Shown one piece after another: positions 4,467 to 31,392 of a stretch of DNA of 64,000 nucleotides (position 1 is the stretch's first letter; each line of letters begins with the position of its first letter). This stretch comes from Candidatus Magasanikiibacteriota bacterium. GTDB taxonomy: Bacteria > Patescibacteriota > Patescibacteriia > Magasanikbacterales > UBA922. The stretch covers positions 23,901-87,900 of the forward strand of contig WJJZ01000010.1 in assembly GCA_014729395.1 (NCBI GenBank), in the 5' to 3' direction. Made by a program: the position numbers and the translations under genes. A model generated the notes under the pieces. That model worked only from the letters and a program-made list of their open reading frames with translations, was not told where the DNA came from and searched no databases.

Positions 4467-4503
4467 TCACAAAAAAACAAACTAACCACCATAACCACAC
4501 TAT

Positions 4504-4992: not shown

Positions 4993-4995
4993 AAT

Positions 4996-5533: not shown

Positions 5534-5561
5534 CGGCCTCCTTTTTTTTTGGCCGTTTTTT
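5534..5561 (+). terminator. Hairpin CGGCC..GGCCG followed by a T-run
   Basis: cggcctcctttttttttggccgtttttt; downstream of the + gene ending at 5376. Confidence 0.35.
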
Positions 5562-5563
5562 GT

Positions 5564-5700: not shown

Positions 5701-5865
5701 GTCAAGGTCCTACACCCTATGAACCAAAAACTTCTCAAATAATGCAATAAATGTAAATTTAACACCATAAAACAGTCGATATGCGATTTATCTTTGACTC
5801 GCTACTTTCGCCCGGATTTACTTAAATTTTGATTAATTTTTCGGTGTCGGCTATACTGAAATAAT

Positions 5866-6432: not shown

Positions 6433-6437
6433 AAAAT

Positions 6438-7460: not shown

Positions 7461-7632
7461 AAGGCCTACCATAATATATACACAAAAATATTTATCATTA
7501 AAATCTTTACGGACAAATCTCTATAATATTTTTTTACTATAGTTTAGGATTTAAAACGCTTAATAAGATTCAACAATCATAATCTGTAATAAAGTATATA
7601 AATAAATAACTAATTCATAAATAAAAAGACTT

Positions 7633-8130: not shown

Positions 8131-8293
8131 AATCACTGATACCGGCAAAACAATAATAACCGACAGCAATCTATTATACTGATGTCATGCTTCAGTTGTG
8201 CCCGATCGTAGATATATGAAATCTATTAAGTTGAGCTTGGATTTATTTATTCCCAGGTACTAAACCCTCTATTTTAATAAATCATACTAATTT

Positions 8294-8863
8294 ATGGCAA
8301 TAAAGTTCAAAAACCAACTTAAGGGCAAAAGACTGACGCTAAAAAGAACGAAACCAAGTTTAAAAATGGCTAAAATCATGTTTAAAGTTATAGACGAAAA
8401 TCGCAAACATCTGGAACCATGGTTTCCATGGCCAAAATTAACACTAAAAGTCGAAGATAGTTTAAAATACTTATTTGACAAAGAAGAAGAAACTGAAAAA
8501 GGTAAAAAAATTGAATATGGTATTTATATTAATAATGAATACATAGGAAATATTTCAATTTTTGACATACATGATAAAAATAAATCTGCTGAAATCGGCT
8601 ATTGGTTGTCATCTGCTCATACCAGAAATGGCTATATGACCGAAGCGTTAAAAATCCTGGAAAAAGAAGCTTTTGAAAGATTAAAATTGAATAGACTACA
8701 AATAAAAATTGATGAAAAAAATAAGGCGTCTTTAGGATTGGCCAAAAAATGTGGCTATACGTGTGAAGGAAAATATAGAGAAGATTCTTTTAGTGAGTAT
8801 TTTAATGAATTTGTTAATTCAGTGGTTTATTCAAAATTAAGGTCAGAGTATAAAAAAAGATAA
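8294..8863 (+). CDS. GNAT family N-acetyltransferase (RimJ/RimL-like)
   Basis: EIGYWL..RNGYMTEA..AF.RL.LNRLQIKIDEKNKASLGLAKKCGY is the acetyl-CoA binding core of RimL-type GNATs. Confidence 0.7.
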   Translation: MAIKFKNQLKGKRLTLKRTKPSLKMAKIMFKVIDENRKHLEPWFPWPKLTLKVEDSLKYLFDKEEETEKGKKIEYGIYINNEYIGNISIFDIHDKNKSAEIGYWLSSAHTRNGYMTEALKILEKEAFERLKLNRLQIKIDEKNKASLGLAKKCGYTCEGKYREDSFSEYFNEFVNSVVYSKLRSEYKKR

Positions 8864-8995
8864 AATAAAAAAATGATATTCGACCCTCTCCCCGTATTCT
8901 CGTTATAATCTTTTGCGTTCAGAGTTCTATTATTTTACAAGGGCAATTGGATTCTATTAATCAACTAAAAAGATAATTAAATAAAATTTATCACA

Positions 8996-11065
8996 ATGAA
9001 AAACTACAAATGTCCGAAATGCGGAATGAAATATAAAAAACCGGGAAAATGTTCTATGGATGGGGCCAAGTTGGTAAAAAATAAAAATACCGAGGATAAT
9101 AATACTTCGCATAAATCACACGACCACACTGAACATCACAAACACATGATAAAAGACTTCAAAAAACGATTTATTGTTTCCGCTATCGTCACTTTTCCGA
9201 TAATTATACTCTCACCATTAATCCAAAATTTGCTTGGTCTTTCAATAGATTTCAGAGGAGAAAAATATGTATTATGGATATTATCCACTTTCATCTTTTT
9301 TTATGGTGGGTGGCCGTTTTTAAAAGGAATTTTTGAGGAGCTAAGGAAAAAACAACCCGGAATGATGACATTGATAGCTCTTGCTATTTTTGTCGCTTTT
9401 GTTTACAGCTCGGCAGTAGTATTTGGCTTGGAAGGAAAGCTCTTTTTCTTGGAATTAGCAACACTGATTGACATCATGCTCCTTGGTCACTGGTTGGAGA
9501 TGAAATCCGTAATTGGTGCTTCCAAAGCCTTGGAAAAACTGGCCGAACTGCTACCTGATACGGCTCACCTAAAAGAAAATGGTGACATTAAAAAAATTAA
9601 AATTTCCGAGTTAAAAAAAGATGATATTGTACTGATAAAAGCCGGCGAGAAAATACCGGCCGACGGTGTAATAGTCAAAGGTGAAACTCACATTAACGAA
9701 TCAATGTTGACCGGTGAGTCCAAACCTGTAAAAAAATCAAAAAATGACGAAGTTATCGGCGGTTCAATTAATGGTGACGGCGTACTTGAAGTCAAAATAA
9801 AAAACATTGCTGATGATTCCTATCTAAACAAAGTCATAGATTTGGTAAAAAAAGCTCAGCAATCAAAATCAAAAACACAAAGATTGGCCGATACCGCCGC
9901 CAAGTGGCTTACTATTATTGCCATAGCTACCGGTGTGGTCACCTTTGTATACTGGATCATATTTGGCCCTGATTTGGCATTTGCAATAGAAAGAATGGCC
10001 ACCGTGATGGTTATCACCTGCCCTCATGCTTTGGGCTTGGCTATCCCTCTGGTGACTGCGGTCTCTACATCACTTTCCGCCAAAAACGGTTTGTTGATCA
10101 GAAACAGAACCGCTTTTGAAAATTCCAGAAAAATCACAAATATTGTTTTCGACAAAACCGGTACATTAACCAAAGCTGAATTCGGAGTAAAATCAATTAA
10201 AATATTCAATGATGATTATAATGAAAAAAAGATTATTCAACTGGCGGCCGCACTTGAAAAAAATTCAGAACATCCGATTGCAAAAGGTATTAGAGCGGAA
10301 TTGGATAAACATGAGACAGATGCGTTGGAAGTTTCAGATTTTCAAATACTAAAAGGCAAAGGGGTAAAAGGAAAAATAGATAATAAAACAATAAAACTGG
10401 TAAGTGAAAAATATCTCAGCTCAAAAAATATTAATATCCCTGAAAGCAACGAAACCGGCACTCTTGTTTATGTATTGATAGACAATGAACCTGTCGGATT
10501 AATCATCCTGGCTGACAAAATTAGAAAAGATTCCGCTGAAGCAGTGAAACAATTGCAAAAATCCGGAATTAAGTGTTGGATGCTTACCGGAGATAATGAA
10601 AAAATAGCGGAAAATGTTTCCACTGAGCTAGGTTTGGATGGTTTTTTCGCCGAGGTACTGCCGCATGAAAAACAGGAAAAAATCAAAGAACTGCAAGACA
10701 ATGGAGAATTTGTAGCTATGGCCGGAGACGGTGTAAACGATGCTCCCTCACTTGCCCAAGCCGATATTGGCATAGCGGTCGGATCAGGTACCGATGTTGC
10801 CGCGGAAACGGCTGATATTATTCTGGTTGATAGCAATCCAAAAGATATTAATTCACTGATACTCTTTGGAAAGGCAACTTACAGCAAAATGATCCAAAAC
10901 CTCTTCTGGGCAACCGGTTATAATGTAATTGCAATTCCTTTGGCAGCCGGAGTATTGTACAGTTTTGGATTTGTAATCTCACCCGCTCTTGGCGCCGCGC
11001 TGATGAGTTTAAGTACCGTAATAGTCGCTATAAATGCAAAGTTTCTTAAGGTAAAAAAAGCTTGA
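8996..11065 (+). CDS. P1B-type heavy-metal (copper, CopB-like) translocating ATPase
   Basis: DKTGTLT, TGDN and GDGVNDAP motifs, a CPH transmembrane metal motif (ITCPHALG), and a His-rich N-terminus (HKSHDHTEHHKHM) with a CxxC zinc ribbon. Confidence 0.9.
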   Translation: MKNYKCPKCGMKYKKPGKCSMDGAKLVKNKNTEDNNTSHKSHDHTEHHKHMIKDFKKRFIVSAIVTFPIIILSPLIQNLLGLSIDFRGEKYVLWILSTFIFFYGGWPFLKGIFEELRKKQPGMMTLIALAIFVAFVYSSAVVFGLEGKLFFLELATLIDIMLLGHWLEMKSVIGASKALEKLAELLPDTAHLKENGDIKKIKISELKKDDIVLIKAGEKIPADGVIVKGETHINESMLTGESKPVKKSKNDEVIGGSINGDGVLEVKIKNIADDSYLNKVIDLVKKAQQSKSKTQRLADTAAKWLTIIAIATGVVTFVYWIIFGPDLAFAIERMATVMVITCPHALGLAIPLVTAVSTSLSAKNGLLIRNRTAFENSRKITNIVFDKTGTLTKAEFGVKSIKIFNDDYNEKKIIQLAAALEKNSEHPIAKGIRAELDKHETDALEVSDFQILKGKGVKGKIDNKTIKLVSEKYLSSKNINIPESNETGTLVYVLIDNEPVGLIILADKIRKDSAEAVKQLQKSGIKCWMLTGDNEKIAENVSTELGLDGFFAEVLPHEKQEKIKELQDNGEFVAMAGDGVNDAPSLAQADIGIAVGSGTDVAAETADIILVDSNPKDINSLILFGKATYSKMIQNLFWATGYNVIAIPLAAGVLYSFGFVISPALGAALMSLSTVIVAINAKFLKVKKA

Positions 11066-11228
11066 TGAAATAAATTATTTTGACATCCTCACCCGATTGA
11101 CTATAATAGATGATATTAAGTTTTAATTATAGAAAATATAGCTATGGATGAAAAAAACCTACAAAAACTTTTGGGGAAAGCCAACAAATATATAAAAAAA
11201 TCCGGACAATATCATTGATCCCTATGAT

Positions 11229-11507
11229 ATGACCTTTGTCTGGGTAAGTGAAAGAATAAGTAAGAACGTGGATAGAAATTTAGTTGGTGAAACCGTAGCT
11301 TCCGTATCAGAAGATCCAAGAGGTATTCAAGATTTTGAAAAAATGAACATAGAGGCGACAACGGTTGATTACAATGTCAAAGAAAAAGAAATTTTTTTTA
11401 AAGCCGGACCCAATAAAAATAAAAAAGCTTTAATAAACTTTGTAGTGATAGAATTTGATGGTCAGCCCTATCTGGTAACCAAAATTAAAAAATACGAAAA
11501 AAAATAA
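11229..11507 (+). CDS. Hypothetical protein
   Basis: ORF only. Confidence 0.25.
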   Translation: MTFVWVSERISKNVDRNLVGETVASVSEDPRGIQDFEKMNIEATTVDYNVKEKEIFFKAGPNKNKKALINFVVIEFDGQPYLVTKIKKYEKK

Positions 11508-11509
11508 AT

Positions 11510-11728
11510 ATGAAAATCATCATAATATTCGCTCTTGGTATTATAATGCTGGCCGGGGCTCTTGTAATAAATATAATAGCCTCCCGCATCGGTTTTTTAA
11601 CATGGTACGATTTTTTAGATAACTATAAACAAGCGGATTTTAAAGCATATTTTTGGCTTTTTTTAATTTACCCCATGCTTTTGGGAATTATTGCCTATAT
11701 AGGGGTTAAATTATTAAATATAATATAG
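11510..11728 (+). CDS. Small membrane protein (2 TM)
   Basis: Two hydrophobic helices; immediately follows the previous ORF. Confidence 0.3.
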   Translation: MKIIIIFALGIIMLAGALVINIIASRIGFLTWYDFLDNYKQADFKAYFWLFLIYPMLLGIIAYIGVKLLNII

Positions 11729-11788
11729 TACTTTTGAGATATTTTTGTTATAATAACTATATATATTGATATATAGTTTTTTTATATT

Positions 11789-12340
11789 ATGCCCGACCAA
11801 AGCAACCAAGAACCACAAAGTAATGTTTTTAAACCCGAACCGATTAAACCAACAGCAAACATAGAACAAAATGAGCAAGTAAGTAAAGATATTATAGAAG
11901 AACCAAAAGAACTCTCTGCAACAGACGTCCAAGAACAAAAAGAATCCGAACCTAATGTCCAAGAAGCATCGCAGCAAGCTATTCAAGAGCGAAAAGATAG
12001 TGGATTGAAACACAAAATAAAGAGAAAGAAAAAAAAGACCTATAGTGCCATCCCCCAAACAAGGGATGAATTGTCATTGCAAATAGAAAAAATTATGGAA
12101 GAAGGATTGGATGAGGCTTTTGAGTCTTTAACCCCCACCCAAAAACAAGAATTTAAGATCAAAGGGGAAGAAACAGCTATAAAAATCAGAAATTTACTTC
12201 GTTCTGCCAAAGTTAAGGTAAAAGAAGTATTTACACTGATTATTGAATGGCTAAAGATATTACCCGGAGTAAATAAATTTTTTTTAGAACAAGAAGCAAA
12301 AATTAAAGCCGACAAAATACTTTCTTTAAGAAAAAAATAA
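11789..12340 (+). CDS. Hypothetical acidic/charged protein
   Basis: ORF ends 5 nt before the VirD4-like ATPase gene. Confidence 0.35.
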   Translation: MPDQSNQEPQSNVFKPEPIKPTANIEQNEQVSKDIIEEPKELSATDVQEQKESEPNVQEASQQAIQERKDSGLKHKIKRKKKKTYSAIPQTRDELSLQIEKIMEEGLDEAFESLTPTQKQEFKIKGEETAIKIRNLLRSAKVKVKEVFTLIIEWLKILPGVNKFFLEQEAKIKADKILSLRKK

Positions 12341-12344
12341 GATT

Positions 12345-14924
12345 ATGATCCAATTTACCGGATCTCCGGTTTCACAATCATTTTCCAACAACGCCGGGAT
12401 ACTTAACGATCCACTTTTTTTCTATGCAATTATAGCTGTTGTCAGCATATTCATATTTCTATCATTTCTTTTCATTTTAAGAGCTTTATTACGGTTTAAA
12501 TCCAGACAAAGCAAAGCATTTAATCGAGTTGTACTGCAAATAACCGTACCAAAAGAAAAAAAATCTGAGGGTACCGGCGGCCAAGGTTCTCAAGAAGACA
12601 GACTGGAACAAATAAAAGAAGAAATAGGTCTGACTGAAACGGTTTTTGCGGCTATTGCCGGTATAAAGCCACAGGGAGGCATCAGTAGCTGGCTGCGCGG
12701 CAGAAACGACCACACCAGTTTTGAGATGGTAATGCATGAAGGTTTGATATACTTTTATGTTTCCGTTCCCGACAGAATGCATAGCTTCATTGAACAGCAA
12801 ATTCATGCTCAATACCCTTATGCTCATATTGAAAAAATGAGTGATTATAATATTTTTTCAAAAAACAGTTCTATTGTCGGAGCATATCTAAAAAGTAGCG
12901 CCCCGGCCGTTTTCCCGCTAAAAACATACAAATCCATGGAAGCCGACCCTCTATCGACCATTCTCAACGTCTTGGCGAAAGTCAGAGAAAATAACAGCTC
13001 GGCTGCCATTCAATTTACGGTCAGACCGGCGAATAAAAACTGGCGCAGCAAAGGAGTCAGCATCGTAAGAGAAGTAAAAAAAGGAAAAAAATTCGAAGAC
13101 GTAGTATCCGGCTCCAAATTTATGAAGGCCCTGAAAATAGTTGGCCAAGGAGTTGGAGAGCAAGTAAAAAGCCCGGAAACTCTTCAGAGAGAAAAAGACA
13201 AAGATCATTACCAACTTTCCGCCATGGAAGAAGAGATGCTAAAAGGCATTGAGGAAAAAATATCCAAAGGTGGAATGCAAGCTACAATCAGGCTTATAAG
13301 TGTATCAGACGATGAAAGTACCGCTCGATTGAATTTAGACAATCTAATAAATGCCTTTTCTCAATTTAATTTGTATAGATATGGAGCCAGTTTTAAAGCG
13401 ATTGTACCCAAAACCCAGTCAAAACTGATCAGAGACTTTATTTACCGATCCTTTAGTGAAAAATACAACATGATTCTAAATACGGAGGAAATGTCCAGTT
13501 TATGGCATTTACCTCTTCACTCTACCGAAGCACCAAATATAAAGTGGCTAACAGGTCGAAAGGCTCCCCCACCCCCGAATATACCGACAGAAGGACTTTT
13601 AATCGGTTTTGTAGAGTATCGAGGACAAAAAACAAATATTTATATGAAAGAAGCCGATAGACGCCGTCATATGTATTTAATCGGTAAGTCCGGTGGTGGT
13701 AAATCCGTATTTATTGCCAAAATGGCTGTCCAAGATATCCATAATGGCAAGGGCGTCTGTGTGGTAGATCCTCATGGTGATTTGGTAGAATATGTTTTGA
13801 GTCACATTCCAAAAGAGAGAGCTGACGATGTTATTATTTTTGATCCTTCCGATGTGGAGCGCCCGATCGGTCTAAACATGCTAGAGGCAAAATCTGAAGA
13901 CCAAAAAGATTTTGCGGTGCAAGAAATGATTTCCATTTTTTACAAACTCTTCCCTCCTGAAATGATCGGCCCCATGTTTGAACATAATATGCGAAATGTC
14001 ATGCTGACTTTGATGGCTGATTTGAAAAATCCGGGAACTGTAATTGATATTCCTCGCATGTTTACGGATGACGAATATGTAAAAAAATATTTGGCAAAGC
14101 TGAAAGATCCGGTTGTACGAGCGTTTTGGGAAAAAGAAATGGCAAAAACAAGTGATTTTCATAAATCAGAAATGCTTGGTTATCTTATTTCCAAAGTCGG
14201 CCGTTTTGTGGAAAATGAAATGATGAGAAATATAATGGGCCAGCAAAAATCGGGTTTTGACTTCCGAGAAGTAATGGACCAAAACAAAATATTGCTTGTG
14301 AACTTAGCCAAAGGTAAAACCGGAGAAGTTAATGCCAAACTGCTTGGCCTGATTGTTGTAGCAAAACTGCAAATGGCCGCTTTGGCAAGAGCTGATATGC
14401 CCGAAGAACAAAGAGATGATTTTTATTTATATATAGATGAGTTTCAAAACTTTGTTACTGATTCCATTTCCACTATCCTCTCTGAAGCCAGAAAATATAA
14501 ACTAAATTTAATTATCGCCCATCAATACATGGGCCAGTTGACAGATGATAAAGGACGAGCTGATATTAGAGACGCAGTCTTGGGTAATGCCGGTACGATT
14601 TGTTCAGCCAGGATAGGTCCGGACGACGCTGAAATACTGGCAAAAGAATTTGCTCCGACCTTTGGTTCCTATGATCTTTTGAATGCTCCCGAATATTCTT
14701 GGTATACAAAGATGTTAATTGATAATACAGCCTCCAAACCGTTCTTAATGCAAACTTTCCCACCGGAAGAAGGTAGTACAGAGCTCGGCTCGGCCATCAA
14801 AGAATTATCAAGATTAAAATTTGGTCGAGACCGTCGTATTGTTGAAGCGGAAATAATGGATCGTACCAAAATCGGACAGCCCGAAAGCCAAGGCAACACA
14901 GAAGCGGCAGAAGCCAGCCTGTGA
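12345..14924 (+). CDS. VirD4/TraD/TraG-family (FtsK/HerA superfamily) P-loop ATPase with N-terminal TM segment
   Basis: Walker A GKSGGGKS, Walker B LYIDEFQNF, an N-terminal TM helix, and size 859 aa. Matches what is usually annotated as a type IV secretion system DNA-binding domain protein in CPR genomes. Confidence 0.6.
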   Translation: MIQFTGSPVSQSFSNNAGILNDPLFFYAIIAVVSIFIFLSFLFILRALLRFKSRQSKAFNRVVLQITVPKEKKSEGTGGQGSQEDRLEQIKEEIGLTETVFAAIAGIKPQGGISSWLRGRNDHTSFEMVMHEGLIYFYVSVPDRMHSFIEQQIHAQYPYAHIEKMSDYNIFSKNSSIVGAYLKSSAPAVFPLKTYKSMEADPLSTILNVLAKVRENNSSAAIQFTVRPANKNWRSKGVSIVREVKKGKKFEDVVSGSKFMKALKIVGQGVGEQVKSPETLQREKDKDHYQLSAMEEEMLKGIEEKISKGGMQATIRLISVSDDESTARLNLDNLINAFSQFNLYRYGASFKAIVPKTQSKLIRDFIYRSFSEKYNMILNTEEMSSLWHLPLHSTEAPNIKWLTGRKAPPPPNIPTEGLLIGFVEYRGQKTNIYMKEADRRRHMYLIGKSGGGKSVFIAKMAVQDIHNGKGVCVVDPHGDLVEYVLSHIPKERADDVIIFDPSDVERPIGLNMLEAKSEDQKDFAVQEMISIFYKLFPPEMIGPMFEHNMRNVMLTLMADLKNPGTVIDIPRMFTDDEYVKKYLAKLKDPVVRAFWEKEMAKTSDFHKSEMLGYLISKVGRFVENEMMRNIMGQQKSGFDFREVMDQNKILLVNLAKGKTGEVNAKLLGLIVVAKLQMAALARADMPEEQRDDFYLYIDEFQNFVTDSISTILSEARKYKLNLIIAHQYMGQLTDDKGRADIRDAVLGNAGTICSARIGPDDAEILAKEFAPTFGSYDLLNAPEYSWYTKMLIDNTASKPFLMQTFPPEEGSTELGSAIKELSRLKFGRDRRIVEAEIMDRTKIGQPESQGNTEAAEASL

Positions 14925-14967
14925 TAATTAAAAATTTAAAATTATAAATGCAAAATAATTTTATCTG

Positions 14968-14985
14968 TTTTGCATTTTTAATTTA
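14968..14985. repeat. 18-bp direct repeat, copy 1 (TTTTGCATTTTTAATTTA)
   Basis: Exact copy at 15401-15418 flanking the other side of the four-helix-bundle gene. An adjacent 8-bp inverted repeat atgcaaaa..ttttgcat lies at 14948-14975. Confidence 0.7.
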
Positions 14986-14991
14986 ATAAAA

Positions 14992-15372
14992 ATGACAAAA
15001 ATATCCAAAAATGAAGGAGTTCATTTTACAAAAATTGACATCTGGCAAAGAAGTTTTAATTTTGCAATTAAAATTATCCAATTATGTGATACACTACCAA
15101 ATAACCAAAAAACATGGATATTAACAAGACAAATTATTCGTTCATCGACATCAATTTCAGCAAATTTAGCAGAAGGTAGTGGTGGAAGCACTAAAAAAGA
15201 ATTTATTCGCTATGCAGATATATCTAGAAAATCTGCACTTGAAACATATAATTGGCTATTATTTATTGAAAAAATTTTTAAATTAAGTGAAATTAACTCT
15301 GAAATCAAAAAAGAAAATGTTGAGATAATAAAAATTCTAAGTAAAATTGTAATAAATTCTAAAAAAAGTTAA
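14992..15372 (+). CDS. Four-helix-bundle protein (23S rRNA intervening-sequence protein family)
   Basis: SISANLAEGSG..S.KEF..Y..IS..SA.E core typical of TIGR02436-type proteins; size 126 aa. Confidence 0.75.
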   Translation: MTKISKNEGVHFTKIDIWQRSFNFAIKIIQLCDTLPNNQKTWILTRQIIRSSTSISANLAEGSGGSTKKEFIRYADISRKSALETYNWLLFIEKIFKLSEINSEIKKENVEIIKILSKIVINSKKS

Positions 15373-16277: not shown

Positions 16278-18062
16278 TCAAGTATAAATTATATCTGCCG
16301 CTCTTTGTTTGGAACCGCGTAATATCATCACATCTTTCTTTTCTCCATCAATTTCACGTTCGCCTATTTTAATAGGCCAACTCTTATCGTCAGCATAATA
16401 ATCCATTGGTGAAATTCCGTAATTATACGGAAATATTTTTTTTAATAAAGTCTTCCAAGTTAAAGCATCTTCCTCTTGCATTACGGTTGAAAACTTATTC
16501 AATGACTCCGAAACTTCTCTGTATACTTTATTCCCTTCTTCGGACATACTAATAACTGTTGGTAATTTTAAATCGCTGATTACCTGAAGTAATTCGGTGA
16601 CTGCTTCTCTGCCATCCTTTTGTTTGCTGATTTCCAAAATTTTCTTTACAACTTCTTTTACTAATTTTTCAATCAATAAGCTGAATGTATTGTCTTTATT
16701 TTTACTGCCTTTACAAAAATCATTAACAAATGTAAGTTTATCAAGGTCATTTTTCTCCATTGCTCTTTCCGCCAAAACATCAGCCAGTTCATTTACTTCC
16801 AAACTATTCTCATCTTTCTTATCATATTCATCACCGATTGTAATCAGGTCTTCGTTGCCGTGAGTGTTTAAGTAAATTACAGAATCACCTTCGCTATATT
16901 TTATAAAATTCAATATGCCATTTACATATTTATCCGCCTTGCCACCGGAAGCGGCATCTAAAAGACTTATTTTTTCCACTCCGGCCGCCTTTATACTTTC
17001 TTCGATCTGTAAAATATCAAACTCGGGTATATAATTTCCATATTCGTCTACATCCAATTTTTTTGAACCATAACCGAATAAAAGAAAATTGTTTGTTTCA
17101 GGACCAAAAATCTCTTTTTCATTTTCTAATAAATTATTATAATCTTGCAATTCCTCCATCAATAATGACGGTAAATGTTCTTCGTCTTCATCTAAAAAGC
17201 GTCTTTTGACTATTGCCTTTTTCAACAATAAATAGGATTCAGCCAGTTTTAAATTATTTTCACTTGATTGCAAAATTTTTCTAATCTCTGGGTTGTCCAA
17301 ACTATTTCTAAATTCCGCCATTTTTTCTTTGTCAGACCAACCCGGATACTCGGTAATATTAGCTTTGATCTCTTGTTTTGAATACCTTGCACTCAAATTT
17401 CTTGGTCTATAATTTAAATTCCTTCTCGGGTCAATTTCCCAGGATTCGATCTCGTCTGATTTCGGTAAAAAATCAGTACTATAAACACTGCCATGTTCAT
17501 ACGGCAAAACGTCTCTATCTATTACGCTCCTTTTCTTGTCATACATTTGTTTTTTTGAGAAAAATTCATATACAAAATGGTGACAACCTAAATCAGCCAA
17601 GTGTCTGTAGATTTCATTCAGCCTGTCAAATGTACTGGCATCCAGCCCCTCTTCATAATCCAATTCATATGCTTTTTCCAAAAATCCGGAAATATTGCCG
17701 CCAAGTTTGTCTGACATGATTTTTTTTATCTCCAATTCATTTTCAACCGTTCTTTCAAGCTTTGAGCCGTAATTTCTATTTGTCTCATGCACCAATCCTT
17801 CTAAAAGTTCCTTATATTCTTTAAATTCAGCTTCGGTCATTTCTTTTTCTGATATAAATTCAACCAACCTCTCCAAATACGGCCCTAACGTGCCGGCTCC
17901 AATTGCTGCACCGGCCGCTCCATAACCCATTAATTTCAAAAATTTGCGTCGACTCATGTCCGCTTCGGGTGTTTTTTCAATTTTTTTCTCTTCAACATTT
18001 TCTACATCCTCTGATATCTTTTCCCAGTTCTTTTTTCCAAATATTTTTTCAAAAAAGGCCAT
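16278..18062 (-). CDS. Secreted protein with twin-arginine (Tat) signal; caspase-like Cys peptidase signature possible
   Basis: MSRRKFLKLMGYGAAGAAIGAGTL Tat signal at residues 36-60, so the true start is probably near 17957. An HG (YLNTHGNE) followed about 50 aa later by DFCKGS resembles a clostripain/caspase-type His-Cys dyad. Confidence 0.45.
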   Translation of the reverse strand: MAFFEKIFGKKNWEKISEDVENVEEKKIEKTPEADMSRRKFLKLMGYGAAGAAIGAGTLGPYLERLVEFISEKEMTEAEFKEYKELLEGLVHETNRNYGSKLERTVENELEIKKIMSDKLGGNISGFLEKAYELDYEEGLDASTFDRLNEIYRHLADLGCHHFVYEFFSKKQMYDKKRSVIDRDVLPYEHGSVYSTDFLPKSDEIESWEIDPRRNLNYRPRNLSARYSKQEIKANITEYPGWSDKEKMAEFRNSLDNPEIRKILQSSENNLKLAESYLLLKKAIVKRRFLDEDEEHLPSLLMEELQDYNNLLENEKEIFGPETNNFLLFGYGSKKLDVDEYGNYIPEFDILQIEESIKAAGVEKISLLDAASGGKADKYVNGILNFIKYSEGDSVIYLNTHGNEDLITIGDEYDKKDENSLEVNELADVLAERAMEKNDLDKLTFVNDFCKGSKNKDNTFSLLIEKLVKEVVKKILEISKQKDGREAVTELLQVISDLKLPTVISMSEEGNKVYREVSESLNKFSTVMQEEDALTWKTLLKKIFPYNYGISPMDYYADDKSWPIKIGEREIDGEKKDVMILRGSKQRAADIIYT

Positions 18063-24318: not shown

Positions 24319-25488
24319 ATGGAATTTACTGGAAACACTTTGTTAATTTTATTAATTATATTGTCAATCGGACTTATCGTTCCGGAACTGGTAAAAAGAA
24401 TCCGCCTACCCTATGTATCCGTAATCATTTTGGCCGGCGCATTGCTGGGACCAAACGGTTTAAATTACATTGAATTTAATGAAACAATATATTTTCTCGG
24501 CTTTTTGGGAATGACATTTCTTATGTTAATGGCCGGTTTGGAAAGTGATTTGGATAATATTACAAAATCAAAGTATAAAATATTTATAATGGCTTTTTTG
24601 AACGGTTTTATACCTTTTATATCAGGCATAGTAATTGCCACTTTATTCGGTTATGATATCGCTACCAGCCTACTCATCGGAGTTGTTTTTATTTCGTCCT
24701 CGGTAGCTGTCATTGTACCCCTTTTGGAAGGTAAAGGCGGCATTAAAAAAAGCTCAGCCAATCTCATGCTTTCGGCTGTCATGGTAACCGATATTATCTC
24801 TCTTATCGCGCTAGGTTTTATCTTTCAAAATACAGATAAAATAACGCTATTACCCCTACCCTTTTATTATATTATTCTTTTTATATCTTTACCCGTACTA
24901 TTTTATATTGTACCAAAATTTACCAATTTTGAATTAAGAAAAAGATTCCACAAACAAGACAAATTAGAAAGTAGAATAAGATTTATTATAGTAATTTTAA
25001 TAGGTGTACTGGTTTATTTTAGCGTACTAGGAATGCACCCAATATTAGCTGCGTTTTTGGCGGGATTATCTCTTTCCGGAGTTATTAAAAAAGATAAATC
25101 AGGTTTAATCTTTGCCAAGATACATACTATTGGCTACGGTTTGTTCGTACCGGTATTCTTTTTTATCGTTGGTATGGACATTGACTTATCAATATTTACA
25201 GAATTAAATTATTCATTATTGCTTATTTTTGCAATAATTGCCGGATCTATTCTAAGTAAGTTTTTTAGCGGTTTTATCGCCGGAAAATTGGCAAAACTCA
25301 ACAACAAAGAATCCACCCTATTCGGATCAATAACCACCACTCAGCTCACAACCACTCTTGCGGTAACCTATACCGCTTCTTCACTCGGTCTCATAGACTC
25401 AAATTTAAATACCGCAATCGTATTGCTCGCGGTTATAACAACATTTATGGGACCAACTATGTTTTTGTGGTTTTCAAAAAATAAATAA
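24319..25488 (+). CDS. Cation:proton antiporter (CPA family, Kef/NhaP-like)
   Basis: About 12 TM helices; the N-terminal LGPNGL..MAGLE region is typical of CPA1/2. Confidence 0.7.
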   Translation: MEFTGNTLLILLIILSIGLIVPELVKRIRLPYVSVIILAGALLGPNGLNYIEFNETIYFLGFLGMTFLMLMAGLESDLDNITKSKYKIFIMAFLNGFIPFISGIVIATLFGYDIATSLLIGVVFISSSVAVIVPLLEGKGGIKKSSANLMLSAVMVTDIISLIALGFIFQNTDKITLLPLPFYYIILFISLPVLFYIVPKFTNFELRKRFHKQDKLESRIRFIIVILIGVLVYFSVLGMHPILAAFLAGLSLSGVIKKDKSGLIFAKIHTIGYGLFVPVFFFIVGMDIDLSIFTELNYSLLLIFAIIAGSILSKFFSGFIAGKLAKLNNKESTLFGSITTTQLTTTLAVTYTASSLGLIDSNLNTAIVLLAVITTFMGPTMFLWFSKNK

Positions 25489-25589
25489 ACTTATCCACAA
25501 TTAAAAAATAATTTATTTAAGTCCAGCAAAAAATTTTTATATTTGCATAAAAGAATTCTACATGTCATAATATAAACATTAAAACTACG

Positions 25590-25828
25590 ACTTACCTGTG
25601 GAAGTTGGGTTAAATTCCCACACTGTGCCGCAACGGTAATCCGTCTTCGTCACGCTTTGAAGTGACTATACCGGACAAGATCTCATCTCACTGGGACTTG
25701 ACCGGGCAGCCCTATACAAAGTTTAGGGTGAAGTCGGGAGTCCGGTCTTCAGATAAGTTAATTGATCCTCTGGATCAATCCCGAGCAGGATATATATACA
25801 CACAACTTGCCTTCCGGGAAGTTTTTTA
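25590..25828 (+). promoter_or_regulatory. Candidate cobalamin riboswitch-like leader with intrinsic terminator expression platform
   Basis: GC-rich 240 nt in an AT-rich genome. Resembles the cobalamin core: GGUUAAAUUCC (cf. GGUGnnAAUCC), CACACUGU / CUCACUGGGA (cf. GCCACUG) and GACUUGACCGGGCAGCC (B12-box-like). Ends in hairpin AACUUGCCUUCCGGGAAGUU + U6 (25804-25827), 25 nt before the ATG at 25851. Downstream genes are DUF4430 and alpha/alpha-toroid proteins. Confidence 0.35.
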
Positions 25829-25850: not shown

Positions 25851-26519
25851 ATGATCAAAAAATTTATTCAAAATAATAAATTTACATTGTTCATTTGGTT
25901 TAGCATGTTAATTTTAATGTTTGTAACAGGATATTATACTTATGAGGATAAAATTAACTTTTACAAAGCTCTTTCAAAAATAAATATAGAAGCTAAAAGT
26001 ATACAAAACTCTATACAAAATATAGAAATAGACAAAAATTCAGAAAATGCTCTTTTAGAAAATAATTTAGATGAAAGTAGCTCTTATCTTAAGCCATCCT
26101 CAACGAAAGTATACACTACTGTAGACAATTTTAAGATATCACAGGATGGTTCTGTTGCTACAAGTAATCCAAAAACAAACAATAATACAGAAAATAAGAC
26201 AAATCTTACATCCACTGAAAATTTGTCTATCACTCTCAAGGTCAATAATAAACAATATTTGGCTAAACTAAACAACAGCAGTACTGTATACGATCTAATG
26301 GAACACTTGCAAGAAGAAAGTGATTTTAAATTTAGTGGAGTTGAGTATGATTATTTAGGCTTTTTCGTTGAGTCTATAGCGAATATAAAAAATGATCCTT
26401 ACACCGGAAAATATTGGATATACTATGTAAACAATAAAAAAGCGACCATGGGCATATCCAATAGGCTATTAAAAAATAATGACGTAATCGAATGGAAATA
26501 TGAACAAGAGGAACTATAA
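25851..26519 (+). CDS. DUF4430-domain protein (beta-domain like that of transcobalamin/intrinsic factor), N-terminal TM anchor
   Basis: C-terminal 80 aa (LKVNNKQY..YWIYYVNNKKATMGIS..NNDVIEWKYE) fit the DUF4430 beta-grasp pattern; N-terminal TM helix. Confidence 0.5.
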   Translation: MIKKFIQNNKFTLFIWFSMLILMFVTGYYTYEDKINFYKALSKINIEAKSIQNSIQNIEIDKNSENALLENNLDESSSYLKPSSTKVYTTVDNFKISQDGSVATSNPKTNNNTENKTNLTSTENLSITLKVNNKQYLAKLNNSSTVYDLMEHLQEESDFKFSGVEYDYLGFFVESIANIKNDPYTGKYWIYYVNNKKATMGISNRLLKNNDVIEWKYEQEEL

Positions 26520-28986
26520 AAGTCCTGTCCTCGTTGCCCTTTTTACAATTATAATAATACTTTTTTCTGCAGAATCCGCATTTGCCAGTACCAATACCAC
26601 TTCAACAGATTCAAATTTGGAAACAAGTTCAAGTACCACTATTACCGATAACTCAATTGAGCTTGAAAGTTCATCAACCACCGAACAATTAAGTATAAAC
26701 ACATTGATGAATTCAAGTACTTCAACTGTTGACAGCACTAGCTCGAGTACCACAAATTCCTTTATAAGTTTGGGATCAAAATCTGATGAGATCATATCAT
26801 CAGAGGCCAGTGTCGAAGAAGCCACTGATTTATACACAAAACATATAAGTTTCAATCTGCGCTTAGGTGATGAATATGTGATAACTGAGGAGATTAATCT
26901 AAGTACGACCACCTACTCAGACCAAATCAATAATATTGAATACGACTTGGCTACTACCGGTACGGTTTTTTCCGCTCTTGTGCAAGCTGATAATTTATCT
27001 GAAAAATTCAGTATTAGTAATGCACAGTATAACGCAGAATTTGATAGTTTTTATATTGCCTGCCTGGAAATTGATGAAAATGGAGAAAACACTGAATACT
27101 GCGATAATTGGAATTATGTGGTTGACGATGAATACCCTTCAATCGGAATGGATAAATATGAACTGAATGGCGAAGAAAATGTTTATGTATATTTTTCTAC
27201 ACCATGGAAAATTACGACAAAGCATAATGAAGTCGAGGTTAATAGCACAACCACTGTTAAAACATGGCGCTATGCCTATAATGATCCCAATACCGAATGG
27301 GAAGCAGATCCTAATACGATGATTGACATTTCTCAGCCAAACGCAAGTTCTACCGGTTGGTGGGATGAGAATTTAACAGTATCTACCACTTATTCAAACG
27401 AAGATGGGTTTGCAGAACTGATTTTTTCAGAGCCGGGTATTTACAATATTAAAATCACTTCTTCCGACTGGACTAAATGGAGTCAGCCGGTACAAATAAA
27501 TGTTATTAATCAAACCAACCAAACTGTAACTTCCACCCTACAAACCGATTCCGCTACGGTTTCTACACAATCGACAAATTCTTATTCATCTACTTCCGAT
27601 AATGAATTGATTTCCAACACTGATATCGAAGAAGCAGCTAATCGAATATTATCATTTTTGGAATCAGAACAAGACCAATCGGGAAAAATCAAAGATGGCG
27701 GTACAAGTGACTGGAGTACGATTTCTTTCGGAGCAGCCGATATTGACTCGGATACCATAAAAAAAGAAGGTAAGTCATTGATTGATTATGTAAAAGACCG
27801 CGAATTGACCGAAACTAACGAGATTAATCTTTGTGCTGCTTATCCCAGACATATATTGGCTTTGTTGGCCGGCGGAATCGAGTCTGATGATCAACAAATA
27901 AAAAATTTAAGAGAAAAAATTGAAAATGACTGCTACGAATTGGAGAATGATAATAATTATGGGGAAATCGGAATCAATGACGATGTTTTTGCTCTTATTG
28001 CTTTAATTGCAAGTGGTTCTGACACCAAAGACAATCAAATATTAACTGATATATTAAACGAAATTAGCGATGACCAGACAGAAGATGGTGCATTTACTTG
28101 GGTAGGATTTCCTAGCGCTGATATTACCGGAGCTGTAATAAACACTCTTATCTACTCCAAAGAAAATGATATTGAAATTGATGAAAATTTGATTGATAAT
28201 GCACGCCAATACTTAAAAGAAACCCAGCTGGATGATGGCGGTTGGGGTATGGATGATAGTGATGTTCTCACAACATCATGGGTAATGATGGGAATAAACG
28301 CCCTTGGTGAAGATCAGCTTGATTGGCAGACCGATAGCGGAAAAAACCCTTGGTATGTACTGGTACAAAATTTGAATGATGAAGGATATTATGAATCCGA
28401 ATACTATACGGATGAAGTGGATTGGTTTGCAACCAAACATGCTGTTCCGGCTCTTTTGGGTAAAAGTTGGCCGATAGTATTTGAATCCGATAATGAGGAA
28501 AACCCAAACTCAAATACTACCCCATCTGAGACAAAGCCTGAAAACACCTCCGACGAAATAACCGACAACACTAGCACATCCACCACAGACAACATAACGA
28601 CCGATGATTCTGTTACCACTGAAAAAGATGAGCATACGAAATCCCCCACTTCCACACCGGCAGACGATGTAATTACAGATCCCAAAGAATATACTCCTCA
28701 AAACAACTTAAACATCAAAGGTTCAGGTGATTATAATTATGAACCTGCTATCGAAAAAAGTGATGACGCAAGTGATGAAAATGAAGTATTTGAAACGGTT
28801 GAACCGGATAAAATCGGACCCGAAGCAATAGATAAACCAACCACAACCAATAGTGATTTGGACCTGGATATAATAGGATTAATAAGAGAAAATCTACGAA
28901 AAATATTCTTTCTCATTACCGCCCTAACCGGAATTATGACAGTTCATGTAATCGGTAAATACATTCAACATAGAAAAAATAAATAA
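26500..28986 (+). CDS. Large surface protein: signal peptide, S/T-rich linker, alpha/alpha-toroid (prenyltransferase/terpene-cyclase-like) repeats, C-terminal TM anchor
   Basis: Signal peptide VLVALFTIIIILFSAESAFA; repeated Q..DG.W-type motifs (QDQSGKIKDGGTSDWS, QTEDGAFTW, QLDDGGWGMDD); T/D-rich stalk; C-terminal TM IFFLITALTGIMTVHVIG. Start overlaps the upstream gene by 20 nt. Confidence 0.55.
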   Translation: MNKRNYKSPVLVALFTIIIILFSAESAFASTNTTSTDSNLETSSSTTITDNSIELESSSTTEQLSINTLMNSSTSTVDSTSSSTTNSFISLGSKSDEIISSEASVEEATDLYTKHISFNLRLGDEYVITEEINLSTTTYSDQINNIEYDLATTGTVFSALVQADNLSEKFSISNAQYNAEFDSFYIACLEIDENGENTEYCDNWNYVVDDEYPSIGMDKYELNGEENVYVYFSTPWKITTKHNEVEVNSTTTVKTWRYAYNDPNTEWEADPNTMIDISQPNASSTGWWDENLTVSTTYSNEDGFAELIFSEPGIYNIKITSSDWTKWSQPVQINVINQTNQTVTSTLQTDSATVSTQSTNSYSSTSDNELISNTDIEEAANRILSFLESEQDQSGKIKDGGTSDWSTISFGAADIDSDTIKKEGKSLIDYVKDRELTETNEINLCAAYPRHILALLAGGIESDDQQIKNLREKIENDCYELENDNNYGEIGINDDVFALIALIASGSDTKDNQILTDILNEISDDQTEDGAFTWVGFPSADITGAVINTLIYSKENDIEIDENLIDNARQYLKETQLDDGGWGMDDSDVLTTSWVMMGINALGEDQLDWQTDSGKNPWYVLVQNLNDEGYYESEYYTDEVDWFATKHAVPALLGKSWPIVFESDNEENPNSNTTPSETKPENTSDEITDNTSTSTTDNITTDDSVTTEKDEHTKSPTSTPADDVITDPKEYTPQNNLNIKGSGDYNYEPAIEKSDDASDENEVFETVEPDKIGPEAIDKPTTTNSDLDLDIIGLIRENLRKIFFLITALTGIMTVHVIGKYIQHRKNK

Positions 28987-28989
28987 TGC

Positions 28990-29541
28990 TTGTCTTTAAT
29001 AAATATGTTCGATAAAACAAATATTTGGATTATGGTGGCACTGCTTATGTTACTTGGTTTCGCAACCAGATTACTGCCCCATCCACCAAATTTCACACCG
29101 ATAGCGGCAATAGCCATTTTTGGAGGTTTGTATTTACCAAAATACTTGTCTGTTGTAATTCCCATTGCGGTGATGCTGGTTGGAGATATAGTTATTGGAT
29201 TTTATAATCCCTACGTTATGATATCGGTCTATGTAGGCTTTATATTATGTGTTGTATTAGCCTTGATTATTCGTAAAAAGAAAAAAATTCACTACATACT
29301 TGGTACAACCGTCTTCGGATCCATATTATTTTTTTTACTTACGAATATGGCTGTATGGGCTTTTGGTACACTCTATCCACATAGTTTGGCAGGATTGATA
29401 GAGAGCTATACCATGGCCATTCCTTTTTTTAGGAATAGTTTGTTGGGAGACTTGTTTTATGTAGGTGTGCTGGTTGGTGGATTTGAAACGGTCAAATATT
29501 TTTTGTTAAATAATAAAAAAATAGAGCAAAAAATAATCTGA
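28990..29541 (+). CDS. Small polytopic membrane protein (5-6 TM), ECF S-component/BtuM-like candidate
   Basis: 183 aa with LLPHPPNFTPIAAIAIFGG followed by 4-5 further TM helices; last gene of the putative operon before the terminator. Confidence 0.4.
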   Translation: MSLINMFDKTNIWIMVALLMLLGFATRLLPHPPNFTPIAAIAIFGGLYLPKYLSVVIPIAVMLVGDIVIGFYNPYVMISVYVGFILCVVLALIIRKKKKIHYILGTTVFGSILFFLLTNMAVWAFGTLYPHSLAGLIESYTMAIPFFRNSLLGDLFYVGVLVGGFETVKYFLLNNKKIEQKII

Positions 29542-29566
29542 TCTAAAAAAAATAAGAATAAAAAAA

Positions 29567-29604
29567 CCCCGGACCAGTGAAATGGTGCGGGGTTTGTGGT
29601 TTTT
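29567..29604. terminator. Bidirectional intrinsic terminator (CCCCG..CGGGG flanked by A7 and U-run)
   Basis: aaaaaaaccccggaccagtgaaatggtgcggggtttgtggttttt between convergent genes. Confidence 0.6.
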
Positions 29605-29621
29605 GTATCTTTCACACCTCC

Positions 29622-29819
29622 TTACTTTGTACCAAGGAAACCAGGCCAACCGCCCTTTTTCTTCCAAACATCTGAATAGGTTTGGTGTGGACCAGACGGG
29701 AGACGGAGGTCCTGTTTGTAGCCTTTGATATATCCTCTAGAGGTTTTAAACCCCAAAGCCTGGGCAGCTTTGGAAGCTTCTTCCCAAGTTTCGTAGAAAC
29801 TAATTATTTTTTTACCCAA
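29622..29819 (-). pseudogene. Frameshift-separated fourth copy of the helicase C-terminal repeat
   Basis: Encodes GKKIISFYETWEEASKAAQALGFKT..GGWPGFLG, identical in pattern to repeats 1-3 of the upstream helicase. Separated by a +1 frameshift in a G3 (vs G2) run near 29835. Confidence 0.5.
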
Positions 29820-31392
29820 GAAACCAGGCCAACCGCCCTTTTTCTTTCCAGACCTCGGAGTAACTATTATTCGGGTCAGATGGAAGACGGAGGTCTTTTC
29901 TGTAGTGTTCTTGGTATTCTGTTTTAGTTTTAAACCCCAAAGCCTGGGCAGCTTTGGAAGCTTCTTCCCAGGTTTCGTAGAAACTAATTATCTTCTTACC
30001 CAAGAAACCAGGCCAACCGCCTTTTTCTTTCCAGACCTCGGAGTAACTCTTATTCGGGTAAGATGGAAGACGGAGGTCTTTTCTGTAGTGTTCTTTGTAT
30101 TCTGTTACAGTTTTAAACCCCAAAGCTTGTGCAGCTTTGGAGGCTTCTTCCCAGGTAGGGTAGAAATTCCGAGACAGCATAACATCAACATAGTCGAGAA
30201 TCCCGACAACCTCTTCCAAGTACTCATCATAGAACACCTTAAAGCCGGTTGAGACCTCTCTCACATCGGTGTCATAATCATCCCGAAGGCCGACAGAAAC
30301 CAGCTGTCCGATGAATTCCAAGCGCCGGTAGGTGCCGACAAAGTCCATGACAACCACTTTTTGCTTGTCTCTGGTCTTGCGCAGACCTCGACCGAGCTGC
30401 TGGTACCAGACTACGGCGCTTCTGGTTGAACGCAGGAAGACGATCAGGTCAACAGTGGGGATGTCAATTGCTTCATTGAACATATCCACCGTGAGTAGTG
30501 TCCGAATCTCTCCTCTTTGAAACGCTTGGAAGCGCTCTTTGAGAGTCTTTGTCTTGAGGCCCGAATGGTATGACACAGCCTCGGGAAAGTATTTGTTGAC
30601 TCTCCTAAGGTGGCTGATCGAACGACAGAAAATGACCGCCTGTTTGTCAGCAACCGACTGCTCGGCTTTGACAGTTTCGGCAATCGCTTCCAGTTTTTCA
30701 ACTAGAAAGAGATTTTTGTCAAGTTTTGTCTTTGAAATGGAGCGGTCCTCTTGCCTGACTCTCTCGATGAGATCTTGTATAACCTCTCTTGAGATGTTGT
30801 CGGTCAAGAGCCGGTACTCCACCTCAGCCAGCCACTCGTTGTCAGCGAGTGCCTCTTTCAAGCCGTAGGAGTATACCTCGTCTCCAAAGATATCCCTGAT
30901 ATCAAGACCATCTCCCCTGAAAGGAGTAGCGGTCATACCAAGCATGAACCGGGGTGTGAAGTAGTCGATGATTTCCTTGTAGGTCTCTGCATGAGAATGA
31001 TGAGCCTCGTCTACGATGACAAGAGAAAACTCATCCTCTTCCAGCTCCCAAACAAGGCTTTCCTGCATGGTCTGAAAAGTACTAAGGAGCACCGTGGCAT
31101 CCTTATCTTCTTTGACCACGCCATTGACAATCGAGATGCCGGGCTTGTCCTCAAGACTGAAGAGAGCCTCTTCAAACTCCTGTTTGGCCTGATACAGCGG
31201 GTCGGTCATATGAAGGATAAAGAGAACTTTACCTCCATAATTTTCCAACCAATAGCGAATGATGTTGCCGGCGAGCACTGTCTTGCCCAAGCCGGAGGCC
31301 ATGGAAATTAGAACAGTTTTGAATCCACTGCTCACGGCCTCAAGGATAGCCGACTTAGCTTCTTCCTGATAAGGTCTGAGTGTTTTCATCAC
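29812..31392 (-). CDS. SF2 (DEAH/ResIII-type) helicase with C-terminal tandem 60-aa repeats
   Basis: Motif I MASGLGKT, motif II VIVDEAHH, motif III TATP, motif VI QQLGRGLR; followed by three repeats of ETWEEASKAAQALGFKT..EY..YRKDLRLPS.PN.SYSEVWKEKGGWPGFLG. Confidence 0.8.
   Translation of the reverse strand: MMKTLRPYQEEAKSAILEAVSSGFKTVLISMASGLGKTVLAGNIIRYWLENYGGKVLFILHMTDPLYQAKQEFEEALFSLEDKPGISIVNGVVKEDKDATVLLSTFQTMQESLVWELEEDEFSLVIVDEAHHSHAETYKEIIDYFTPRFMLGMTATPFRGDGLDIRDIFGDEVYSYGLKEALADNEWLAEVEYRLLTDNISREVIQDLIERVRQEDRSISKTKLDKNLFLVEKLEAIAETVKAEQSVADKQAVIFCRSISHLRRVNKYFPEAVSYHSGLKTKTLKERFQAFQRGEIRTLLTVDMFNEAIDIPTVDLIVFLRSTRSAVVWYQQLGRGLRKTRDKQKVVVMDFVGTYRRLEFIGQLVSVGLRDDYDTDVREVSTGFKVFYDEYLEEVVGILDYVDVMLSRNFYPTWEEASKAAQALGFKTVTEYKEHYRKDLRLPSYPNKSYSEVWKEKGGWPGFLGKKIISFYETWEEASKAAQALGFKTKTEYQEHYRKDLRLPSDPNNSYSEVWKEKGRLAWFLG

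Follow-up and report, generated by a model that had tools for sequence, protein, structure and literature searches.

One of the systems closest to the one considered here was described by Burroughs, Balaji, Iyer and Aravind (2007; Biol Direct 2:4; PMC1796856), who predicted that bacterial transcobalamin-like surface proteins containing the SLBB domain (now DUF4430) act as B12 scavengers. These proteins are secreted or surface-anchored, carry an alpha/alpha-toroid either N- or C-terminal to SLBB, and are often encoded together with a second SLBB paralog and CbiO-like and CbiQ-like genes (the A and T components of energy-coupling factor, ECF, transporters), usually in hosts without B12 biosynthesis. 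The study covers Gram-positive bacteria and archaea but not the Candidate Phyla Radiation (CPR), does not mention riboswitches, and is a prediction without experiments. Here we analyze three consecutive genes, g1, g2 and g3, in 64,000 nucleotides (nt) of Candidatus Magasanikiibacteriota DNA (contig WJJZ01000010.1, positions 23,901-87,900, forward strand; assembly GCA_014729395.1), hereafter called the window. The g1 and g2 pair fits the earlier description exactly, but the membrane partner is a DUF6580 protein, g3, and no ABC ATPase gene is adjacent. We conclude that the locus is probably a B12-responsive, that is, B12-repressed, operon for corrinoid capture and uptake. A surface-exposed capture and uptake system had been proposed in the first-pass annotation of this DNA, and the beta-domain, the toroid and the B12 riboswitches described below favor that prediction.

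Two S-component-type B12 transporters are experimentally established. BtuM of Thiobacillus denitrificans (PMC6072759; PDB 8OVV, 8C7P) is a solitary transporter in which Cys80 is required as cobalt ligand, whereas CbrT of Lactobacillus delbrueckii (PMC5997447; PDB 6FNP), specific for B12 and cobinamide, depends on an ECF module, and solitary CbrT gave no growth support. BtuM differs from g3 in sequence (17% identity) and is mostly proteobacterial, without SLBB or toroid partners. The lsa1836-1840 operon of Lactobacillus sakei (10.1101/864751) combines an S-component with two separate secreted proteins, the transcobalamin beta-like Lsa1839 and the alpha-like Lsa1840, and therefore resembles our locus in its 'split transcobalamin' idea. 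However, it has its own fused ECF A/A' and T genes, and heme is the substrate favored by its authors, whereas the operon studied here has no ECF module, places both the beta and alpha modules in g2, and is preceded by a cobalamin riboswitch. Because of the Burroughs prediction, the L. sakei operon and the established CbrT and BtuM transporters, we regard the kind of system as already known.

In eukaryotes, transcobalamin, intrinsic factor and haptocorrin (Cobalamin_bind plus DUF4430) sandwich one B12 molecule between an alpha/alpha-toroid and a beta-grasp SLBB domain. These carriers are soluble and are taken up by receptor-mediated endocytosis; they are not partners of permeases. The similarity to the proteins of the window extends over the entire beta-domain for the g1-family profile, and to the structure of the toroid for g2. 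On the other hand, g2 has the reversed domain order, an inserted beta-sandwich, membrane anchors and stalks, and its toroid shows no match to Cobalamin_bind at the sequence level.

The three genes are regarded as a compact operon with a long leader because the open reading frames (ORFs) are tightly packed, a gap of 362 nt separates g1 from the upstream CPA2 Na+/H+ exchanger gene, and a hairpin follows g3 (Table 1). The g2 start codon (ATG, 26500) precedes the g1 stop codon (TAA, 26517-26519), so that the two genes overlap by 20 nt. The g2 and g3 proteins have the same sequences as GF349_03080 and GF349_03085, respectively, which are annotated as hypothetical proteins in a metagenome-assembled genome of Candidatus Magasanikbacteria (CPR/Patescibacteria); the NCBI record starts g3 at an ATG at 29005, yielding 178 amino acids (aa). 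The terminator behind g3 has a minimum free energy of -26.8 kcal/mol (z -4.14 versus shuffles) and looks bidirectional, separating the operon from a convergent minus-strand helicase gene. A consensus promoter/terminator scanner detected neither this terminator nor the putative one in front of g1. The three-ORF layout, the overlap at 26500-26519 and the strong terminator had all been noted in the first-pass annotation and are borne out here.

At curated Rfam thresholds, only a tRNA is reported in the whole 64 kb, and no riboswitch. In E-value mode, however, the intergenic region upstream of g1 matches RF00174 at 25600-25742 (+) with 20.4 bits and E 0.003, below the gathering threshold of 31.5 bits. 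The segments GGAAG...CACUGUGCCGCAACGGUAA and GAAGUCGGGAGUCCGGUC of the leader align with positions 47-167 of RF00174, comprising the aptamer core and the B12 box. As an independent test, we built a covariance model, R1, from 21 hand-annotated leaders of other loci, with the window left out. Over the 64 kb it gives a single match, the leader element listed in Table 1, with 85.9 bits and E 1.2e-21. The element consists of the P1 5' strand, the GGAAG hairpin, CACUGUGCCGCAACGGUAA, a long variable extension, the B12-box-like GAAGUCGGGAGUCCGGUC and the P1 3' strand, after which come a small hairpin and the CCCGAGCAGGA switching sequence (25780-25790). Judged from these features, the leader is a cobalamin-class riboswitch with predicted ligand binding. 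It was absent from the first-pass annotation, as was the DUF4430/SLBB domain of g2 described below.

The comparison set comprises 80 genomic loci encoding DUF6580 relatives, with three additional loci (L081-L083). A cobalamin-class riboswitch is present in 52 of the 80. Model R1 finds 47 matches in the related loci, on the + strand every time, and a search with the aptamer-core motif recovers 45 of 80 loci, on the operon strand only and never on the opposite one. Leaders of the Magasanikbacteria type share a common architecture: P1 5' strand, GGAAG hairpin, CACUGUGCCGCAACGGUAA, a variable hairpin, AGUCCGrUCUUC with the P1 3' strand, and CCCGAGCAGGA. Several related leaders are recognized by Rfam itself. 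L006 exceeds the threshold of RF01482 (AdoCbl; 54.3 versus 50), L039 that of RF01689 (AdoCbl-II), and L034 and L042 that of RF00174 (Cobalamin); L040 and L061 are also Cobalamin, with 94-99 bits. The leaders of L001, L004 and L020 go unreported at the Rfam gathering level, yet score 87-96 bits with the lineage-specific model. The CPR-type leaders have in common with the known cobalamin riboswitches (clan CL00101: RF00174, RF01482, RF01689) the aptamer core, the B12 box, covarying P1 and hairpins, and the position ahead of B12 uptake genes. They differ in that the copy in the window and those of L001, L004 and L020 score below the Rfam gathering level, and in sharing the CCCGAGCAGGA element 3' of P1.

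The pairing scheme is supported by covariation over four helices in 36 leaders, in an alignment that was itself fitted to the covariance model. Paired states occupy 90.4% of the cells, compared with 64.4% in shuffles, and 16 of the 18 pairs have changed on both sides. The covariation score is 0.641, versus 0.179 for shuffles (0 of 500 reach 0.641) and at most 0.146 for slid registers. MAFFT with RNAalifold aligned the mixed riboswitch classes poorly; on the CPR-type set the hairpins were recovered, but shifts of register between sequences kept P1 from being found, and the covariance model was used instead.

In several CPR loci, a second cobalamin-type riboswitch is located just 3' of DUF6580, ahead of a gene for an uncharacterised, apparently cytoplasmic protein of 360-430 aa. 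The genes in this position (L050:7253-8545, L055:7309-8391, L077:5990-7285 and L057:2575-2976) have no Pfam or NCBIfam match. The full-length proteins of L050, L055 and L077 carry a C-terminal Gly/Cys motif (GGGGC, GSCG, AGCAGGG) followed by a CxxC...CxxC zinc-ribbon. They might be B12-independent enzymes under B12 repression, or factors for the processing of B12.

Gene order is conserved together with the riboswitch. In 54 of the 80 loci DUF6580 is preceded by a DUF4430 gene, within 200 nt in 22 of these; a toroid gene is found in 37, and the complete DUF4430 - toroid - DUF6580 triplet in 31. Since the triplet recurs in 31 of 80 loci and DUF4430 is upstream in 54, the arrangement is not due to chance. 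When the count is restricted to the 63 loci for which at least 3 kb of upstream sequence is available, a riboswitch is present in 48 and a riboswitch or a DUF4430 gene in 57. A Parcubacteria genome has the same g1-g2-g3 triplet with an 11-nt overlap between g1 and g2, and the capture proteins of L027 and L070 are arranged as toroid then DUF4430, which is the order of transcobalamin.

The g1 product has a single N-terminal transmembrane (TM) segment at aa 10-29, as given by TM prediction, followed by an Asn/Ser/Thr-rich linker and a DUF4430 domain (Pfam PF14478) at aa 144-218 with 56.5 bits (gathering 23.8) and E 3.8e-15. Single-sequence PDB searches with g1 or g2 returned nothing meaningful, and family profiles were required. 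A profile of 36 orthologous g1 domains (A6) matches intrinsic factor (E 4e-6, residues 306-391), haptocorrin (3e-5) and transcobalamin (8e-5), and in all three carriers the matched part is the C-terminal, B12-contacting beta-domain. The PDB entries are 3KQ4/2PMV (residues 306-397), 4KKI, 2BB6 and 5NO0, the last being a 108-residue transcobalamin-2 chain of beta-domain size. The profile also matches a DUF4430-like structural-genomics protein, and PDB 3U7Z is annotated just as 'putative metal binding protein'; at the top of the list, the only solved structures of known function are B12 carriers. From these profile matches, g1 is assigned as a type-II membrane-anchored DUF4430/SLBB protein with a predicted transcobalamin-like beta-grasp domain.

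The g2 product has a cleavable-looking, signal-peptide-like N-terminus (aa 5-31, ...AFA|S) and a modular body that ends in a stalk, an anchor and a basic tail (Table 1). An AlphaFold model of aa 110-705, with a pLDDT of 87, consists of two beta domains, a disordered linker and a toroid of about 12 helices, and QW-like motifs are present in the sequence (QTEDGAFTW, QLDDGGW). In the single-sequence Pfam search, DUF4430 is sub-threshold (21.3 bits, E 3.6e-4), as is SQHop_cyclase_C. However, profile-profile comparison of the g1 and g2 families by hhalign yields a probability of 96.6% and E 5.5e-10, identifying the first beta domain of g2 as a paralog of g1, and many g2 homologs carry PF14478. In Foldseek, the g2 toroid matches terpene cyclases, complement TED domains, intrinsic factor (E 8.5e-6) and transcobalamin (E 1.3e-5), with a TM-score of 0.64 to 8PAK when normalised to the target. 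Intrinsic factor and transcobalamin are therefore significant, though not the closest, structural matches. Taken together, g2 alone holds both transcobalamin-type modules, in the order beta then alpha, with g1 as a second, paralogous SLBB protein. The first-pass annotation had described a transcobalamin split into two separate genes; the toroid and the beta-domain are indeed present, but the description as 'split' is not quite right because g2 itself carries SLBB plus the toroid.

The g3 product belongs to DUF6580 (Pfam PF20221; 168 bits versus a gathering score of 27, E 2.6e-49), a family that forms about 6,000 clusters at 50% identity. Its modelled structure is a six-helix ECF S-component fold, closest to the B12 transporters BtuM and CbrT. 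In sequence, CbrT (6FNP) is the only significant PDB match of the DUF6580 profile (E 1.1e-4, TM1-TM5), and BtuM is not matched. Invariant in the family is a P-H-x-x-N-F-x-P motif in the L1 loop after helix 1 (g3 aa 30-37), but there is no invariant Cys; the single Cys of g3, C87, is not conserved. No ABC ATPase adjoins the operon in the window or in the 83 related loci, and the three ABC-signature ORFs in 866 kb of loci are not adjacent to DUF6580. Likewise, no ECF A or T genes lie within 10 kb of DUF6580 in L081-L083, and none of the 30 largest ORFs of the window is an ECF gene. We predict g3 to be a corrinoid permease. The first-pass descriptions of g1 as a TM-anchored DUF4430 protein, of g2 as a secreted protein with toroid motifs, a stalk and a C-terminal anchor, and of g3 as S-component-like all hold at the level of domains and folds.

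The strongest argument for g3 comes from lineages with a different envelope. In Ignavibacteria/Bacteroidota loci (L061, L068, L073, L080 and probably L040), the riboswitch is followed by a TonB-dependent receptor and DUF6580. The best match of these receptors is the BtuB model (E 1e-98 to 2e-103), far ahead of other receptor families (~1e-50) and heme receptors (~1e-47), although they fall below the BtuB equivalog cutoff. In these diderm lineages the BtuB-like receptor thus replaces the surface proteins, and the DUF4430 protein is sometimes kept. The swap implies that DUF6580 is the constant partner of different B12 capture devices; since it is the constant element beside whichever capture device suits the envelope, it is likely to be the corrinoid permease of the cytoplasmic membrane.

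A single 1.9-kb metagenomic contig encodes a 337-aa fusion (L084:173-1186, P0256) of DUF6580, one extra TM helix and DUF4430, with a topology consistent with an outward-facing SLBB domain. No second DUF6580-DUF4430 fusion was found among the 120 best homologs. As Rosetta-stone evidence we give the fusion little weight because a stop codon between adjacent genes may have been lost.

Between the aptamer and g1 lies a putative expression platform. The putative terminator hairpin folds alone with -6.7 kcal/mol, and CCCGAGCAGG (25780-25789) can alternatively pair with its 5' half (CCCGA.GCAGG : CUUGC...CGGG) with -10.2 kcal/mol, which suggests a transcriptional OFF switch. CCCGAGCAGGA is essentially invariant 3' of P1 in about 26 related CPR-type leaders and is able to pair with the terminator 5' half or loop as an antiterminator. 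Several related leaders also have a terminator-like hairpin and T-run between CCCGAGCAGGA and the DUF4430 start codon. A partner for CCCGAGCAGGA within the aptamer was sought by eye and none was found, so that only the antiterminator pairing is supported.

We propose the following course of events. The leader riboswitch would sense intracellular cobalamin; with cobalamin bound, the terminator just before g1 would most likely form and the operon would be off, whereas without ligand CCCGAGCAGGA would pair with the terminator 5' half and transcription would proceed. Once made, g2, held off the membrane by its long stalk, would capture free or host-derived corrinoid and hand it over to g3 at the membrane, perhaps with g1 as intermediary. 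g3 would then carry the corrinoid across; it could act alone, as a solitary S-component in the manner of BtuM, or rely on an ECF module whose genes lie elsewhere.

Several observations weigh against this reading of the operon. The leader fold energy is no better than that of shuffles (z -0.58), and the terminator hairpin in front of g1 is weak. Both the riboswitch and the DUF4430 gene are missing in 6 of the 63 loci with full upstream sequence. The g2 toroid resembles terpene cyclases and complement TED domains more closely than transcobalamin, and Pfam Cobalamin_bind finds no match in g2 at E <= 0.1. For g3, the similarity to CbrT is remote (E 1e-4), DUF6580 being a separate Pfam family, and the essential cysteine ligand of BtuM has no conserved counterpart. 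Neither an ECF module nor a B12-dependent enzyme was found in the 64-kb window. Lastly, the related L. sakei operon has been argued to import heme.

The last point leads to the question of the ligand. Import of heme or another tetrapyrrole rather than B12, as proposed for lsa1836-1840, would agree with the absence of the BtuM cysteine from DUF6580 and with the invariant L1-loop histidine (H31), which could ligate Fe or Co; the L. sakei paper further models heme in the groove between the alpha-like and beta-like proteins (10.1101/864751). We nevertheless regard it as quite improbable, because the operon and most orthologous operons stand behind cobalamin-class riboswitches, the diderm partner receptor matches BtuB (1e-98 to 1e-103) far above heme receptors, and the solved structures of known function that the DUF4430 profile matches are all B12 carriers. 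The cargo might instead be a B12 precursor or fragment, such as cobinamide, another incomplete corrinoid or the lower ligand, and not complete cobalamin. A B12 riboswitch would control precursor import equally well, ECF-CbrT moves cobinamide besides cobalamin, and 'B12 or its precursors' was left open by Burroughs et al. (PMC1796856). Yet salvage enzymes would be needed, of which none was seen in the window, and the BtuB-like TonB-dependent partner and the transcobalamin-like binders argue for a large corrinoid rather than a small base. Precursor import is thus rather unlikely in our view, though the less unlikely of these two alternatives.

The other alternatives concern the surface proteins. 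That g2 could be an enzyme, a class-II terpene cyclase or prenyltransferase only incidentally next to g1 and g3, is suggested by the match of the g2-family profile to squalene-hopene cyclase (1GSZ, E 3e-12), by squalene-hopene-cyclase-like proteins as top Foldseek matches, and by NCBI names of several g2 homologs that include 'terpene cyclase/mutase family protein'. Of the features of that family, g2 has the QW repeats and the alpha/alpha-toroid; it has no DxDD (D.DD) motif anywhere, its conserved motif being GINDDVF, and it scores 16-19 bits with TIGR01507 and TIGR01787, far under the curated cutoffs of 323-431. Moreover, g2 is predicted to be extracytoplasmic from its signal peptide, stalk and C-terminal anchor, and it is fused to SLBB, translationally coupled to g1, and placed behind a B12 riboswitch in conserved synteny. 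We therefore rejected the assignment as a terpene cyclase, on the missing DxDD and the location, and give an enzymatic role hardly any probability. A thioester-containing alpha-2-macroglobulin-like protein was likewise rejected, since g2 lacks the CGEQ motif. Scarcely more credit is due to the possibility that g1 and g2 serve an episymbiotic CPR cell as surface adhesins or in attachment to its host, with g3 alone a transporter. Adhesins typically have long low-complexity stalks and beta-sandwich domains, and the g2 toroid is also similar to the TED domains of complement and alpha-2-macroglobulin, but the thioester motif is absent, and SLBB plus toroid are the very two modules with which transcobalamin contacts B12. 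In addition, diderm lineages have a BtuB-like receptor instead of the surface proteins, which argues for a ligand-capture role of g1 and g2. Capture and uptake of a corrinoid thus seems to us the most probable function of the operon.

The coordinates of the operon and its parts are collected in Table 1. The window as a whole is low-GC DNA, with a GC fraction of ~0.29-0.45 per 2-kb segment, mostly 0.31-0.39. The gene convergent with the operon (29622-31392, -) encodes a ResIII/SNF2-type helicase with C-terminal 'integrase repeat units' (INT_rpt), and the small ORF 29622-29819 carries another INT_rpt unit (...YETWEEASKAAQALGFKT...). The GC of this region is 0.445, compared with 0.29-0.40 in the other 2-kb segments, which hints at a foreign origin. 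Further away, a 520-aa ORF at 518-2083 (-) joins a LexA DNA-binding domain, an S24 peptidase domain and a C5 cytosine DNA methylase (E 2.4e-97), an unusual SOS-type repressor-methyltransferase fusion. It is followed at ~2600-15000 (+) by a defence/mobile-element-type cluster with DUF3800, an Mrr restriction endonuclease, a UPF0489 protein, a P-type ATPase and a TraG/VirD4-like type IV coupling protein (12345-14924); the cluster may be an integrated element. Three large ORFs have no Pfam match at E <= 1e-5, at 50965-53244 (-), 53874-55967 (+) and 16278-18062 (-), of 759, 697 and 594 aa, respectively.

Table 1. Features of the operon and its surroundings (positions in nt of the window unless marked aa)
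Feature	Position	Strand	Basis or remark
CPA2 Na+/H+ exchanger gene	24319..25488		upstream neighbour of g1
Cobalamin-class riboswitch (CPR variant), predicted	25588..25790	+	covariance model R1; sub-threshold RF00174
Putative intrinsic terminator of expression platform	25804..25827	+	AACUUGCCUUCCGGGAAGUU + U-run
g1	25851..26519	+	ORF, 222 aa
g2	26500..28986	+	ORF, 828 aa
g2 signal peptide	aa 1-~30		
g2 Ser/Thr-rich region			between signal peptide and SLBB domain
g2 SLBB/DUF4430 domain	aa ~150-233; nt ~26947-27198	+	profile-profile comparison
g2 beta-sandwich	aa ~227-336		disordered linker after
g2 alpha/alpha-toroid	aa ~366-665; nt ~27595-28494	+	AlphaFold, Foldseek
g2 Thr/Asp/Glu/Pro-rich stalk	aa 666-790		
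g2 C-terminal TM anchor	aa 801-820; nt 28900-28959		basic tail after
g3	28990..29541	+	ORF, 183 aa from TTG
Strong intrinsic terminator	29552..29606	strand-neutral	A-tract, GC-rich hairpin 29564-29595, U-tract

What appears to be new in this locus is DUF6580 as permease partner, the control by B12 riboswitches across phyla, the absence of a co-localised ECF module, and the CPR leader variant. Literature searches for DUF6580/PF20221, for a CPR cobalamin riboswitch and for SLBB with ECF returned nothing relevant. As a bolder extension, which we consider less likely than not, DUF6580 might constitute a third, so far unrecognised, corrinoid-specific S-component-type family beside CbrT and BtuM, widespread in CPR, Ignavibacteria and Bacteroidota, free of an ECF module, and fed by a membrane-tethered DUF4430/SLBB protein with or without a toroid partner. 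By definition, ECF-type systems are regarded as independent of a substrate-binding protein. If the extension is correct, DUF6580 would be an S-component that uses one, and the bacterial DUF4430/SLBB-toroid proteins would be working counterparts of animal transcobalamin.

The genomes of CPR/Patescibacteria are very small, and the general view is that these bacteria cannot make most cofactors; in the literature searched we found no description of B12 acquisition by CPR bacteria. If our reading of the operon is right, the capture front-ends for B12 would be interchangeable on one permease, with SLBB/toroid proteins in CPR and BtuB-like receptors in diderms. The operons would also provide riboswitch-validated bacterial relatives of transcobalamin, in which the evolution of the SLBB-toroid B12 sandwich could be studied. 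Since the Rfam thresholds miss the CPR-type riboswitch, B12 regulons in CPR genomes are probably under-annotated. For DUF6580 itself, with its ~6,000 clusters and no paper attached, corrinoid transport would be a testable function.

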